NCBI RefSeq assembly: GCF_009931435.1
Contig: NZ_CP043414.1
Length of the DNA: 64,000 nucleotides
Source: Escherichia coli
GTDB lineage: Bacteria > Pseudomonadota > Gammaproteobacteria > Enterobacterales > Enterobacteriaceae
Direction: 5' to 3' (one strand)
Part shown: piece by piece, positions 2,626 through 62,392 of the stretch
How the letters are laid out: every line of letters starts with the position of its first letter
How positions within the stretch are numbered: position 1 is the first letter of the stretch
Notes under the pieces: model-generated
Database searches by the model: none
What the model was told of the DNA's origin: nothing
What the model saw: only the letters and a program-made list of their open reading frames with translations
Translations under genes and position numbers: made by a program

Positions 2626-2707
2626 GTGTTCTGTCCATCCTTCAGTAATCGTTATCTTTTAAACCGTAGACCGAATATTTCGTATCGCTTCCGGGTATTG
2701 TCGGTCA

Positions 2708-2790
2708 CCCGTAGGCCTGATAAGACGCGTCAGCGTCGCATCAGGCTTCAATTGCCGGAGAAAGCGATAATGCCTCATCCGGTCTACAGT
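2708..2790. repeat. REP (repetitive extragenic palindrome) elements in sucB-sucC spacer
   Basis: gtaggcctgataagacgcgtcagcgtcgcatcaggc palindromic unit. Confidence 0.5.
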
Positions 2791-4041: not shown

Positions 4042-6843
4042 TTATTCGACGTTCAGCGCGTCATTAACCAGATCTTGTTGCTGTTTCTGGTGAACGGACA
4101 TATACCCTACCGCCGGAGAGGCGGAGGCCGGGCGGCCTGCATAACGCAGAGAAGCCCCAAACGGAATCACTTCACGGAAATGATGCTGGCTGCAGTACCA
4201 TGCGCCCTGGTTGAGCGGCTCTTCCTGGCACCAGACAAAATCCTTGACGTGAGCAAACTGCTGCAACACTTCCTGCATCGCTTTATGCGGGAACGGGTAG
4301 AGTTGCTCGATACGCACAATGGCGACATCGTGTTGATTGTTCTTACGGCGTTGTTCCAACAGGTCGTAATAAACCTTACCAGAACACATCACTACGCGCT
4401 TCACACCCTTAGGATCAAGCTCGTCGATTTCACCAATGGCAGGCAGGAAGGTGCCGTTCGCCAGTTCTTCGAGGCTGGAAACCGCCAGCGGATGACGCAG
4501 CAGGGATTTCGGCGACATCACCACCAGCGGACGACGCATCCCGCGCAGCGCCTGACGACGCAGCATATGGTAAACCTGTGCCGGGGTAGACGGTACGCAC
4601 ACCTGCATGTTTTGTTCAGCACAAAGTTGCAGATAACGTTCCAGACGCGCGGAGGAGTGCTCCGGCCCCTGCCCTTCATACCCGTGCGGCAGCAGCATTA
4701 CCAGACCACACATCCGGCCCCATTTCTGTTCGCCAGAGGAGATGAACTGGTCGATAACCACCTGCGCACCGTTAGCGAAGTCACCAAACTGCGCTTCCCA
4801 GATGGTCAGCGTACGCGGCTCTGCGGTGGCATAACCGTATTCAAACGCCAGCACTGCTTCTTCAGACAGTACGGAGTCCCAGACGCGGAACGCGCCCTGG
4901 CCATTATGGATATGTTGCAGCGGCGTGTAAGTGGAACCGTTGGACTGGTTGTGGATCACCGCATGGCGATGGAAGAAGGTACCGCGACCGGAGTCTTCAC
5001 CCGACAGGCGGACCGGAATGCCTTCATCAACCAGCGTGGCGTAAGCGAGGTTTTCCGCGCCGCCCCAGTCGAACAGTTTCTCACCGGCAGCCATTGCCTG
5101 GCGATCGCCATAAATCTTGGCAACGCGAGACTGCATTTCAACCGCTTCCGGCACCGTACTGATACGTTTCGCCAGTTCCTGCAGGCGCTTCATCTCAACT
5201 TTGTTCGGGTACTCTTCGTCCCATTCGTGGTTGAGGTACGGCGACCAGGTGAAAGAGTGCATGTTCATCGGACGCCACTCTGCTACCACGCAATCGCCAG
5301 CATCCAGCGCATCGCGGTACAGGTTAACCATCTCGGTGGCATCTTCCAGCGTCGCGACTTTTTCCTGCTCCAGCTTGTCAGCGTAGATTTTGCGCGGCGT
5401 CGGATGTTTTTTGATTTTCTGATACATCAGCGGCTGAGTTGCACTCGGCTCGTCGGCTTCGTTGTGGCCGTGACGGCGGTAGCACACCAGGTCGATGAAG
5501 ACATCACGTTTAAAGGTGTTACGGAAATCGAGCGCCAGACGGGTCACAAAGGCAACGGCTTCCGGATCATCCGCATTAACGTGGAAAATCGGTGCCTGTA
5601 CCATCTTGCCGATATCAGTACAGTACGGCGTAGAACGGGCATCCAGCGGGTTAGAGGTAGTGAAACCGACCTGGTTGTTGATAACGATACGTACCGTACC
5701 GCCAACTTCATAACCACGCGCTTTCGACATGTTCAGGGTTTCCTGAACCACGCCCTGCCCGGTCACTGCGGCATCACCGTGGATGGTGATTGGCAGCACT
5801 TTGTTGCTGCTCGGCTCATCGAGTCTGTCCAGACGGGCGCGAACAGAACCGATAACTACCGGGCTTACAATCTCAAGGTGAGACGGGTTAAACGCCAGCG
5901 CCAGGTGAACCAGGCCGCCATCGGTCTGGAAGTCAGACGAGAAGCCCATGTGGTATTTCACGTCGCCCGTGCCGAGGTGTTCTTTATGTTTACCGGCAAA
6001 TTCGTCGAACAAATCTTGCGGTTTTTTACCCAGCACGTTAACCAGCACGTTCAGACGACCACGGTGCGCCATCCCAAGAACCACTTCACGGGTGCCGCTG
6101 TTGCCAGCATGGCGGATCATCTCTTTAAGCATCGGGATTAACGCATCACCGCCTTCCAGCGAGAAGCGTTTTGCGCCAGGGAATTTTGCGCCGAGGTAAC
6201 GTTCAAGGCCTTCAGCGGCGGTCAGTTCGCTTAAGAAGCGTTTTTTCTCTTCGCTATTGAAAGTCGCGCGACCAGACTCGATACGCTGTTGGATCCAGCG
6301 TTTTTCTTCGGTGCTGGTAATGTGCATGTACTCGGCACCAATCGGGCCGCAGTAGGTTTGCTTGAGGGCTTCCAGCAGCTCGCCGAGTTTCATGGTTTCT
6401 TTGCCGCTGGCAAATGAACCGACGTTGAAGGTCTCCTGGAAGTCTGCTTCGGTCAGATCGTGGAAAGACGGATCCAGATCGGCCACTTTATCTTGCTGCC
6501 ACAGTCCCAGCGGATCGAGATTCGCATGCTGGTGACCGCGGAAGCGGTATGCGTTAATGAGCTGCAGGACTTTAACCTGCTTCACATTGGTGTCAGGGTC
6601 GGAGATCGTTGAAGAGTAACGTGAAGCGTCTTTCGCCAGGCGGCGGAAATATTCACGCGTTTGAGAGTGGAATTGATCCGGTTTGACTCCCGTACCAGGT
6701 AACTGCTGGAACGTCGAACGCCAGTTAGCGTCAACCGAGTCAGGATCGGTTAAGAAGTCTTCATAGAGCTGTTCTATCCAGCTCTGGTTTGCGCCAGAGA
6801 GGTAAGAAGAGTCCAACCAGGCTTTCAAAGCGCTGTTCTGCAT
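4042..6843 (-). CDS. sucA: 2-oxoglutarate dehydrogenase E1
   Basis: 933-aa ORF starting [30 protein letters not shown]. Confidence 0.97.
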
Positions 6844-7002
6844 CGTGATCCCTTAAGCATCTTTTTTATGCTTACTTCGCCGTGGATACTACCACGCACA
6901 GTGATGTGCGTGCCGGGGTTCACTTGCGAGCTCTTGTCTACGTAGTGGCTCGCGAAGGAACCTTTAAAAACTGTCTTAGTGTCAGGGGCAGTTTTTAAAG
7001 AT

Positions 7003-7283
7003 TTCCTGCATTTCTTTTGTAGGCCGGATAACGCATTCACGCTGCATCCGGCGCTGTTTGCCTGATGCGACGCTTGCGCGTCTTATCAGGCCTACGATTC
7101 CTGCATTTCTTTTGTAGGCCGGATAACGCATTCACGCCGCATCCGGCCCTGGTTGCCTGATGCGACGCTTGCGCGTCTTATCAAGCCTACGATTTCTGCA
7201 TTTCTTTTGTAGGCCGGATAAGGCGTTCACGCCGCATCCGGCACTGGTTGCCTGATGCGACGCTTGTGCGTCTTATCAGGCCT
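7003..7283. repeat. tandem BIME/REP array, three copies of a ~95-bp unit each with two inverted REPs
   Basis: unit ttcctgcatttcttttgtaggccggataacgcattcacgc...ctgatgcgacgcttgcgcgtcttatcaggcctacga seen three times in the sdhB-sucA spacer. Confidence 0.75.
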
Positions 7284-7287
7284 GGGT

Positions 7288-8004
7288 TTACGCATTACGC
7301 TGCAACAACATCGACTTGATATGGCCGATGGCGCGCGTCGGGTTCAGCCCCTTCGGACATACACTGACGCAGTTCATGATGCTGTGACAGCGGAATACGC
7401 TGAATGCATCGCTCAAACCGTCGAGGCGGCTGTCAGTCTCGGTATCACGGCTATCGATCAGGAAACGATATGCCGCTAACAAGCCTGCCGGGCCGATAAA
7501 CTTATCGGGATTCCACCAGAAAGACGGACAAGAGGTTGAACAACATGCGCAGAGAATACATTCATACAGCCCGTCGATTTTTTCGCGCTGCTCTGGCATC
7601 TGTAAATGCTCACGAGCTGGCGGATTTTGTCCATTATTCAACAGGTAAGGCTTAATTTTCTCATATTGCGCATAGAATTGTCCCATGTCTACCACCAAAT
7701 CGCGGATCACTGGTAAACCTGGCAGCGGGCGAATCACAATCTTCTTGCCCGGCTGGTTGAGTGCCGAAATCGGGGTAATACAGGCCAGACCATTCTTGCC
7801 GTTCATGTTCAGACCGTCGGAACCGCACACACCTTCACGGCAGGAGCGACGGAACGACAGGCTGGGATCTTTCTCTTTCAACTGGATAAGCGCATCCAGC
7901 AGCATCATGTCGCGACCTTCTTCCGCTTCCAGGGTGTAATCCTGCATACGCGGAGCATCATCAACATCCGGGTTATAGCGATAAATTGAAAACTCGAGTC
8001 TCAT
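7288..8004 (-). CDS. sdhB: succinate dehydrogenase iron-sulfur subunit
   Basis: 238-aa ORF starting MRLEFSIYRYNPDVDDAPRMQDYTLEA. Confidence 0.97.
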   Translation of the reverse strand: MRLEFSIYRYNPDVDDAPRMQDYTLEAEEGRDMMLLDALIQLKEKDPSLSFRRSCREGVCGSDGLNMNGKNGLACITPISALNQPGKKIVIRPLPGLPVIRDLVVDMGQFYAQYEKIKPYLLNNGQNPPAREHLQMPEQREKIDGLYECILCACCSTSCPSFWWNPDKFIGPAGLLAAYRFLIDSRDTETDSRLDGLSDAFSVFRCHSIMNCVSVCPKGLNPTRAIGHIKSMLLQRNA

Positions 8005-42970: not shown

Positions 42971-43070
42971 TGCCGGATGCGGCGTGAACGCCTTATCCGT
43001 CCTACAAAATAGTGCAAATTCAATATATTGCACCATCCTCGTAGGCCTGATGAACGTAGCGTATCAGGCT
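42971..43070. repeat. REP elements between pgm and ybfP
   Basis: tgccggatgcggcgtgaacgccttatccgtcctac and gtaggcctgatgaacgtagcgtatcaggc. Confidence 0.5.
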
Positions 43071-50389: not shown

Positions 50390-50554
50390 TGCCGGATGCG
50401 GCGTGAACGCCTTATCCGGCCTACAAAAGCACGCAAATTCAATATATGGCAGAGATCATGTAGGCCTGATAAGCGTAGCGCATCAGGCAATTTAGCGTTT
50501 GAAACTGTTTCTATGTTTCTTGCCGGATGTGGCGTAAATGCCTCACCCGGCCTG
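50390..50554. repeat. REP element cluster (three units) between chiP and glnS
   Basis: gccggatgcggcgtgaacgccttatccggcctac, gtaggcctgataagcgtagcgcatcaggc, gccggatgtggcgtaaatgcctcacccggcc. Confidence 0.55.
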
Positions 50555-58869: not shown

Positions 58870-58967
58870 CCTGATGCGCTACGCTTATCAGGCCTACGCA
58901 GCTCCTGCAATATATTAAATTTTCATGCTTTTGTAGGCAGGATAAGGCGTTCACGCCGCATCCGGCA
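58870..58967. repeat. REP elements between umpH and asnB
   Basis: gcctgatgcgctacgcttatcaggcctac and gtaggcaggataaggcgttcacgccgcatccggca. Confidence 0.5.
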
Positions 58968-61688: not shown

Positions 61689-61765
61689 GGCTACGTAGCT
61701 CAGTTGGTTAGAGCACATCACTCATAATGATGGGGTCACAGGTTCGAATCCCGTCGTAGCCACCA
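61689..61765 (+). tRNA. metT: tRNA-Met (elongator, anticodon CAT)
   Basis: 77-nt cloverleaf ggctacgtagctcagttggttagagcac...ccacca, anticodon loop ctcataa. Confidence 0.95.
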
Positions 61766-61773
61766 TCTTTTTT

Positions 61774-61858
61774 GCGGGAGTGGCGAAATTGGTAGACGCA
61801 CCAGATTTAGGTTCTGGCGCCGCAAGGTGTGCGAGTTCAAGTCTCGCCTCCCGCACCA
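61774..61858 (+). tRNA. leuW: tRNA-Leu (anticodon TAG)
   Basis: 85-nt class II tRNA gcgggagtggcgaaattggtagacgc... with long variable arm, anticodon loop tttaggt. Confidence 0.95.
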
Positions 61859-61881
61859 TTCACCAGAAAGCGTTGTACGGA

Positions 61882-61956
61882 TGGGGTATCGCCAAGCGGT
61901 AAGGCACCGGTTTTTGATACCGGCATTCCCTGGTTCGAATCCAGGTACCCCAGCCA
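61882..61956 (+). tRNA. glnU: tRNA-Gln (anticodon TTG)
   Basis: 75-nt tggggtatcgccaagcggtaaggcaccggtttttgataccgg...; symbol assigned by order. Confidence 0.93.
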
Positions 61957-61990
61957 TCTTCTTCGAGTAAGCGGTTCACCGCCCGGTTAT

Positions 61991-62065
61991 TGGGGTATCG
62001 CCAAGCGGTAAGGCACCGGTTTTTGATACCGGCATTCCCTGGTTCGAATCCAGGTACCCCAGCCA
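61991..62065 (+). tRNA. glnW: tRNA-Gln (anticodon TTG), tandem copy
   Basis: identical to the previous tRNA-Gln(TTG); symbol assigned by order. Confidence 0.93.
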
Positions 62066-62080
62066 TCGAAGAAACAATCT

Positions 62081-62157
62081 GGCTACGTAGCTCAGTTGGT
62101 TAGAGCACATCACTCATAATGATGGGGTCACAGGTTCGAATCCCGTCGTAGCCACCA
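62081..62157 (+). tRNA. metU: tRNA-Met (elongator, anticodon CAT), second copy
   Basis: identical to metT sequence. Confidence 0.95.
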
Positions 62158-62205
62158 AATTCTGAATGTGTCGAATGCGTTCGGCAAATTCACAAACCAA
62201 TTTGT

Positions 62206-62280
62206 TGGGGTATCGCCAAGCGGTAAGGCACCGGATTCTGATTCCGGCATTCCGAGGTTCGAATCCTCGTACCCCAGCCA
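62206..62280 (+). tRNA. glnV: tRNA-Gln (anticodon CTG)
   Basis: 75-nt tggggtatcgccaagcggtaaggcaccggattctgattccgg... Confidence 0.93.
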
Positions 62281-62317
62281 ATTTATTCAAGACGCTTACC
62301 TTGTAAGTGCACCCAGT

Positions 62318-62392
62318 TGGGGTATCGCCAAGCGGTAAGGCACCGGATTCTGATTCCGGCATTCCGAGGTTCGAATCCTCGTACCCCAGCCA
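62318..62392 (+). tRNA. glnX: tRNA-Gln (anticodon CTG), tandem copy
   Basis: identical to the previous tRNA-Gln(CTG). Confidence 0.93.

Follow-up and report, generated by a model that had tools for sequence, protein, structure and literature searches.

A three-unit BIME-2 repeat array between sdhB and sucA of Escherichia coli: anatomy, allele series and a possible role in the operon mRNA

The spacer between sdhB and sucA, at the junction of the two halves of the sdhCDAB-sucABCD operon, carries a conspicuous block of tandem repeats in Escherichia coli assembly GCF_009931435.1 (contig NZ_CP043414.1), which raises the question of what kind of element this block is, how far it varies between strains and whether it could influence the mRNA in which it lies. 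We addressed this in a window of 64,000 nucleotides, the whole stretch of DNA that was analysed, and in matching loci of other genomes. The array proved to be an element of a known kind, a BIME-2, and REPs had been described at this locus before; what is new here is descriptive, namely a series of alleles with zero to four units and evidence of exchange between those units.

Identity and anatomy of the array

The DNA hosting the array is an E. coli-group chromosome; among 5,426 complete E. coli genomes, none exceeds 99.0% identity over the 11.7 kb adjoining the array. Tandem Repeats Finder described 7003..7283 as one tandem array with a period of 95, 3.0 copies, 94% matches, no indels and a score of 499, and a repeat search resolved it into three copies in register (7003-7097, 7098-7192 and 7193-7287); relative to the first of these, the other two have 96% and 89% identity. 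The initial annotation had described three tandem units of about 95 bp and named tandem periodicity as the feature to check; both were recovered, and the unit that it quoted is present in the sequence. Its start at 6985 lies 18 nt too early, since 6985..7002 is unique sequence belonging to a separate inverted repeat. The units are mutually distinguishable, with 4-10 differences per 95 positions.

The complete array of three 95-bp units (7003..7287, minus strand; delimited by the tandem repeat search, the in-register copies and dissection of the units) is extragenic and lies in the sdhB-sucA spacer (6844..7287, 444 bp), as had been proposed, between the sdhB stop codon (7288) and the sucA start codon (6843). 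Open reading frames and the RefSeq annotation of matching loci identify the upstream gene as sdhB (7288..8004, minus strand), after whose stop codon the array directly follows, and the downstream gene as sucA (4042..6843, minus strand), whose start codon lies 159 nt beyond the array end at 7003. Because both genes are on the minus strand, the mRNA is complementary to the array as displayed in the window, and transcription runs from right to left. Two frames that cross the array on the minus strand (6982..7131 and 6825..7040, of 49 and 71 aa) are translations of REPs and linkers and not genes.

Fixed-phase dissection of the units on the transcribed strand resolved each into a y REP of 36 nt (GTAGGCCTGATAAGACGCGCAAGCGTCGCATCAGGC), a head-to-head linker of 7 nt, an inverted z2 REP of 34 nt (GCCGGATGCGGCGTGAACGCCTTATCCGGCCTAC) and a tail-to-tail linker of 18 nt (AAAAGAAATGCAGRAATC), adding up to 95. 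All features that follow are on the minus strand. Unit 1, adjoining sdhB, begins with a y REP (7250..7284) that has 3 mismatches to the y pattern, a 5' GTAG degenerated to CAG and a predicted hairpin of -19.7 kcal/mol, whose first paired base lies 6 nt after the sdhB TAA. An S-type head-to-head linker (AACCAGT, 7243..7249) joins it to an inverted z2 REP of exact consensus (7209..7242; 0 mismatches, -21.3 kcal/mol), which aligns to the Z2 hairpin of Rfam RF02564, and the tail-to-tail linker AAAAGAAATGCAGAAATC (18 nt, 7191..7208) closes the unit. The y REP of unit 2 (7155..7190) has a single mismatch, a C-to-T change in the stem that gives a G.U pair in the sense RNA, with a hairpin of -17.8 kcal/mol in the sense and -14.8 kcal/mol in the antisense orientation; it is followed by the linker AACCAGG (7148..7154), a z2 variant, GAATGCGTT (7114..7147; 2 mismatches, -16.4 kcal/mol), and the 18-nt linker AAAAGAAATGCAGGAATC (7096..7113). 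Unit 3 comprises a y REP of exact consensus (7060..7095; 0 mismatches, -20.5 kcal/mol), the linker AAACAGC (7053..7059), a z2 variant, GCAGCGTGAATGCGTT (7019..7052; 3 mismatches, -16.0 kcal/mol), and a linker-like tail, AAAAGAAATGCAGGAA (7003..7018), which was delimited by the repeat search and dissection and merges into the unique sucA 5'UTR. The AAACAGC linker marks the sucA-nearest unit in all E. coli multi-unit alleles examined except that of N96.

The array thus holds the 36-nt y pattern three times (0, 1 and 3 mismatches) and the 34-nt z2 pattern three times (0, 2 and 3 mismatches), against 0.00 expected from 100 dinucleotide-preserving shuffles of the window, which excludes chance. The y and z2 REPs lie on opposite strands, head to head over the three 7-nt linkers, as paired inverted palindromes of the sort that the initial annotation had recognised in each BIME unit. 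The GTAG/CTAC motif is kept in five of the six REPs, the exception being the y REP nearest sdhB, and the 18-nt tail-to-tail linker is conserved within the array. In the Bachellier/Gilson classification, BIME-2 elements consist of y and z2 REPs separated by a short S linker, carry an s-, l- or r-type motif tail to tail, and occur in tandem copies whose number varies between strains (PMC3333891). In its REP types, their alternation, its tandem and variable copies, its GTAG/CTAC motifs and its extragenic site the array is a BIME-2; we regard it as a textbook case, to be labelled a repeat region and neither a gene nor an sRNA. BIME-1 elements (RIP/RIB) also pair a y REP with an inverted z-type REP, but are single-copy, of z1 type and have a long L linker with an IHF site (PMC3333891). 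That assignment was ruled out, as the units here are tandem and of z2 type, their linker measures 7 nt and the IHF consensus WATCAANNNNTTR is absent from the spacer (6844..7287).

REPs of these types are also present at four other places in the window (2711, 42972, 50391 and 58933), with none expected by chance. Within the same operon, another intercistronic spacer, that between sucB and sucC (window 2700..2790, minus strand), carries y- and z-type REPs, namely a degenerate z-like REP followed by an inverted y REP (2711..2746), but with opposite polarity and no tandem array. A z2 REP at 42972..43005 (1 mismatch) is followed by a match to the Rfam sRNA ES036/CssrF (43006..43048; 45.5 bits against a gathering score of 37.6), which is probably another REP-associated RNA annotation. 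The z2-type REPs at 50391..50424 and 58933..58966 have 0 and 1 mismatches, respectively. Seven tRNA genes (Rfam RF00005) are clustered on the plus strand at 61689..62389.

Alleles at the site and exchange between units

The sdhB-sucA spacer is strongly polymorphic, ranging from 200 to 550 bp, and the strain-variable copy number proposed in the initial annotation was confirmed in sequence for alleles with zero, two, three and four units and for the K-12 type. The shortest spacer (200 bp, strain 102651) contains no unit and no REP. At the site of the array, a 36-nt segment (L006 409..444) carries an unrelated GC hairpin, GCCGGGGAAATCCCCCGGC, with its stem beginning 12 nt past the stop codon; the 50-nt segment that includes this hairpin has a predicted -17.9 kcal/mol. 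Spacers of 300 or 311 bp are of the K-12 type, with one y-z2 unit and a short third REP (K-12, L1PEag1), and those of 349 or 361 bp have two units (EC31, C7, WP5-S18-ESBL-09). Three units were found in spacers of 444, 445 or 455 bp, i.e. in the window, RMDEC465, R32_14_1F, N96 and AVS0096, and four in spacers of 550 bp from CFT073, Nissle 1917, LF82, ATCC 25922 and the E. albertii type strain. The four-unit allele of the CFT073 type is identical in at least 60 genomes.

Frequencies were estimated, rather than taken by census, from two samples (n=39 and n=59) drawn at even spacing from a similarity ranking of the 5,426 complete E. coli genomes, with sampled alleles inferred from the span of the match and checked by sequence in 12 loci. 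On this basis the K-12 type was the commonest (18/39 and 25/59, ~43%), followed by the zero-unit allele (12/39 and 19/59, ~32%) and that with two units (7/39 and 12/59, ~19%), while alleles with four units (1/39 and 2/59, ~3%) and three units (1/39 and 1/59, ~2%) were rare. That about 32% of the sampled genomes have no REP at the site means that the array is dispensable. The zero-unit allele nonetheless has its own hairpin after sdhB, and a stable hairpin thus follows this gene in every allele seen. In a cross-species scan of contigs with the 3' end of sdhB, in which the variable codon position was made degenerate, the E. albertii type strain was the only one returned, although the same scan did not return the E. 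coli representative genome. The third-last sdhB codon (window 7300) varies synonymously: K-12, the CFT073-type allele and the other loci examined have CAA, against CAG in the window, RMDEC465 and EC31.

The K-12 REP cluster shares with the window its site, its flanks, the initial order of y REP, S linker and inverted z2 REP and the sucA-proximal 5'UTR. The two differ in that K-12 has, within 300 bp, one y-z2 unit, a 12-nt linker (AAGTCATTACCC) and an atypical short third REP, against three regular units in the 444 bp of the window, and in the GTAG before the first REP, which is kept in K-12 and replaced by CAG in the window.

Several comparisons bear on how the units have changed. Removal of a single internal unit from the CFT073-type four-unit allele gives exactly the three-unit allele of AVS0096. 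Four three-unit alleles with a common 5'UTR haplotype, those of the window, RMDEC465, R32_14_1F and N96, differ from each other at 5-12 of 284 nt of the array, with the adjoining 175 nt identical, and these differences amount to a few variant sites redistributed between units. The E. albertii array has two species-specific variants, each present in three of its four units and in none of the E. coli units examined. The mosaic make-up of the units and their faster divergence relative to the flanks indicate that unequal exchange or gene conversion has taken place between them repeatedly, and the number of units probably shifts in 95-bp steps through unequal recombination or slippage. TnpAREP, the REP-associated transposase, possibly helps this turnover; it cleaves and recombines BIMEs in vitro, and variation in copy number is a general trait of BIME-2 (PMC3333891).

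Predicted RNA structure and comparison with REP325

The array was predicted to fold strongly on the transcribed strand (-137.8 kcal/mol, z = -8.6 against shuffles), and also on the plus strand (z = -7.65). Each REP forms its own predicted RNA hairpin of -16 to -21 kcal/mol, all with an internal mismatch or loop. Alternatively, adjacent y and z2 REPs may pair with each other over either linker into an imperfect duplex of ~33 bp, at about -43 kcal/mol equal in stability to the two local hairpins. A scan of 6700..7450 for intrinsic terminators found no terminator-like site on either strand, the hairpins having no U-tract and the linkers after each REP hairpin no T run, and no sigma-70 promoter was found by scanning the same interval on either strand. 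The few substitutions of the window cost 13.7 kcal/mol of hairpin energy in the sense RNA versus 19.5 kcal/mol in the antisense RNA, a smaller cost on the sense strand that may faintly hint at constraint at the RNA level.

REP325 (naRNA1-6, yjdM-yjdN of K-12) is likewise a tandem BIME-2 of y and z2 REPs between co-oriented genes with which it is co-transcribed, but its details differ. Its period is 100 bp with 5.8 copies (95 bp and 3 in the window), its head-to-head linker has 13 nt (7 nt) and its tail-to-tail linker, AAATTCCCGCACCCTCC, has 17 nt and is unlike the 18-nt AAAAGAAATGCAGAAATC found here. In the mRNA, REP325 places a z2 REP before an inverted y REP, as opposed to a y REP before an inverted z2 REP, and its first hairpin follows the stop codon after ~20 nt rather than 6 nt.

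All three units match the Rfam model RF02564 (naRNA4/CssrE), which is based on the Y and Z2 REPs of REP325, with no indels in the hairpins, and they could accordingly be read as naRNA4-like genes for small two-hairpin RNAs that bind HU and condense the nucleoid, as proposed for REP325. Scores on the plus strand, antisense to the operon, were 86.8, 72.2 and 66.1 bits and all exceed the gathering score of 59.5, which speaks for this reading; it is weakened by those being the only matches above the threshold, the transcribed minus strand reaching 53.7, 39.9 and 37.3 bits. The empty promoter scan on both strands and the polarity of the array, opposite to that of REP325, also argue against it, as does a 2026 study in which neither REP325 nor naRNA4 measurably compacted the nucleoid (bioRxiv 10.64898/2026.03.23.713779). 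In effect RF02564 recognises any y-z2 BIME-2 unit, and a match therefore indicates a BIME-2 unit and is no proof of an naRNA gene. With the transcribed strand below the gathering score, we rejected the units as naRNA4 genes and consider this reading very improbable.

A possible role in the operon mRNA and the adjoining sucA 5'UTR

Overall, the array is best explained as a three-unit y/z2 BIME-2 in an operon spacer with a probable role at the RNA level, a reading that we hold with good confidence. Its structural side was observed above and comprises the anatomy of the units, their assignment to a family, strong predicted hairpins and a polymorphism from zero to four units. Its functional side, already suggested in the initial annotation, is that the array would affect mRNA stability and partly terminate transcription between sdh and suc; this is in line with the literature on K-12 and REP325 and would extend to the three-unit allele by analogy. 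According to that literature the array would be transcribed within the long sdhCDAB-sucABCD mRNA. There, its six stable hairpins would block 3'-to-5' exonucleases and so protect the upstream sdhCDAB segment, and could at the same time act as a series of leaky, non-intrinsic termination or pause sites, probably in part dependent on Rho, that lower readthrough into sucABCD. The ~33-bp y:z2 duplexes are plausible substrates of RNase III.

The processing that takes place in the sdhB-sucA spacer is reportedly the subject of a primary paper by Cunningham and Guest from 1998. For the sdh-suc operon of K-12, an internal terminator with partial readthrough and a secondary promoter have been described (PMC4161252), and the sucA 5'UTR is reported to be cut by RNase III (PMC9731577). 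An RNA-seq study lists an RNase III site, 'P67/sucA', at coordinate 758515 of NC_000913.3 (PMC5371410), which corresponds to position 110 of the K-12 spacer (L004/L009). This places it in the loop formed by the short third REP and outside the unique 5'UTR, though only approximately, since the coordinate was computed as a coverage ratio from reads of 100 nt that fall within repeats. This site in the third K-12 REP may reflect real cleavage of a REP duplex or noise in read mapping.

The closest functional parallel comes from REP325, described as a dual terminator and stabiliser: its deletion lowers the upstream and raises the downstream mRNA, its products form a ladder, and dependence on Rho was seen only with the full array, none being detectable for fragments of 2-4 hairpins (bioRxiv 10.64898/2026.03.23.713779). 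The same study found REP effects to be context-dependent (bioRxiv 10.64898/2026.03.23.713779). REPs within 15 nt of a stop codon have in addition been linked to ribosome stalling and to reduced translation of the gene before them (Liang, Rudd and Deutscher 2015, cited in PMC12306157), and the sdhB-proximal REP, at 6 nt, lies within this distance, position alone being compared. The expression data on the sdhB-sucA spacer all come from K-12, whose REP arrangement differs from that of the window. Given the polymorphism of the spacer, results obtained in K-12 on RNase III sites, the internal terminator and the targeting of the sucA 5'UTR by sRNAs need a check of the allele before being transferred to other strains.

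The same observations can be read without any selected function, the array being a selfish or neutral repeat that persists through TnpAREP or recombination and affects expression only incidentally. About one third of the genomes do without it, its unit number drifts from zero to four, its mosaic units outpace their flanks in divergence, and both the in vitro recombination of BIMEs by TnpAREP and the variation in copy number usual for BIME-2 (PMC3333891) are in keeping with such a history. The retention of a four-unit array at the same site in E. albertii stands against it, as does the other stable GC hairpin of the zero-unit allele (-17.9 kcal/mol in a 50-nt segment, stem 12 nt after the sdhB stop), which suggests that a hairpin is wanted there; the lower cost of the substitutions on the sense RNA would weigh slightly in the same direction. 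We regard neutrality as possible but, on balance, unlikely. Somewhat more doubtful is a role mainly at the level of DNA, in which the array would be a strong, transcription-independent site of gyrase binding and cleavage that governs supercoiling between sdh and suc, and which would be compatible with a role of the RNA. Gyrase cleavage sites are over-represented in BIME-2, mostly in y REPs, of which the window array carries three, and the sucB-sucC BIME-2 of K-12, a gyrase cleavage hotspot, holds several (PMC6379681). However, only a subset of BIME-2s is cleaved and the K-12 BIME-2 table has no sdhB-sucA entry, jumping from 712453 to the sucB-sucC element (PMC6379681), and about one third of strains have no array for gyrase to act upon. 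Finally, the count of three could be an assembly artefact, a collapsed or expanded repeat, since short reads can mis-assemble near-identical 95-bp units. With units distinguishable by 4-10 differences per 95, and with three-unit alleles in four independent complete genomes (RMDEC465, R32_14_1F, N96 and AVS0096), we find an artefact scarcely credible.

Within the preferred reading of a BIME-2 with a role in the mRNA, we further considered whether the number of units is a heritable dial for the ratio of sdh to suc expression, each unit adding leaky hairpins and a duplex that RNase III could cut. This we consider unlikely and advance as speculation. If it were true, lineages with the zero-unit, the K-12 and the four-unit form (the last represented by B2 strains, among them CFT073 and Nissle 1917) would differ measurably in how the levels of 2-oxoglutarate dehydrogenase and succinyl-CoA synthetase are coupled to that of succinate dehydrogenase, and a unit number that tunes readthrough would be a natural case of non-coding copy-number variation setting the stoichiometry of enzymes of the TCA cycle.

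The array ends directly against an inverted repeat that is rich in A/T, AAATCTTTAAAAACTG ... CAGTTTTTAAAGGTT (6959..7004, minus strand). This repeat has arms of 15 nt (6959-6973 and 6989-7003) that are 93% complementary, and forms a predicted RNA hairpin of -14.1 kcal/mol. It was found in every allele examined, including the zero-unit allele and that of E. albertii, and may be part of the sucA promoter region or of a site of processing. Closer to sucA, two small hairpins of the 5'UTR (6926..6953 and 6892..6913, minus strand) occur in two haplotypes (loci L005, L007, L008, L010, L011 and L012). The stem of the first is either GCGAGC/GCTCGC or GCGGAC/GTCCGC, i.e. with two compensatory pair changes, and its loop is wholly different; the second keeps its stem, CACGCACA/TGTGCGTG, and has a loop 8 nt longer in one haplotype. 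The 5'UTR haplotype and the BIME allele combine in various ways, L012 for instance having a K-12-type BIME with the alternative 5'UTR.
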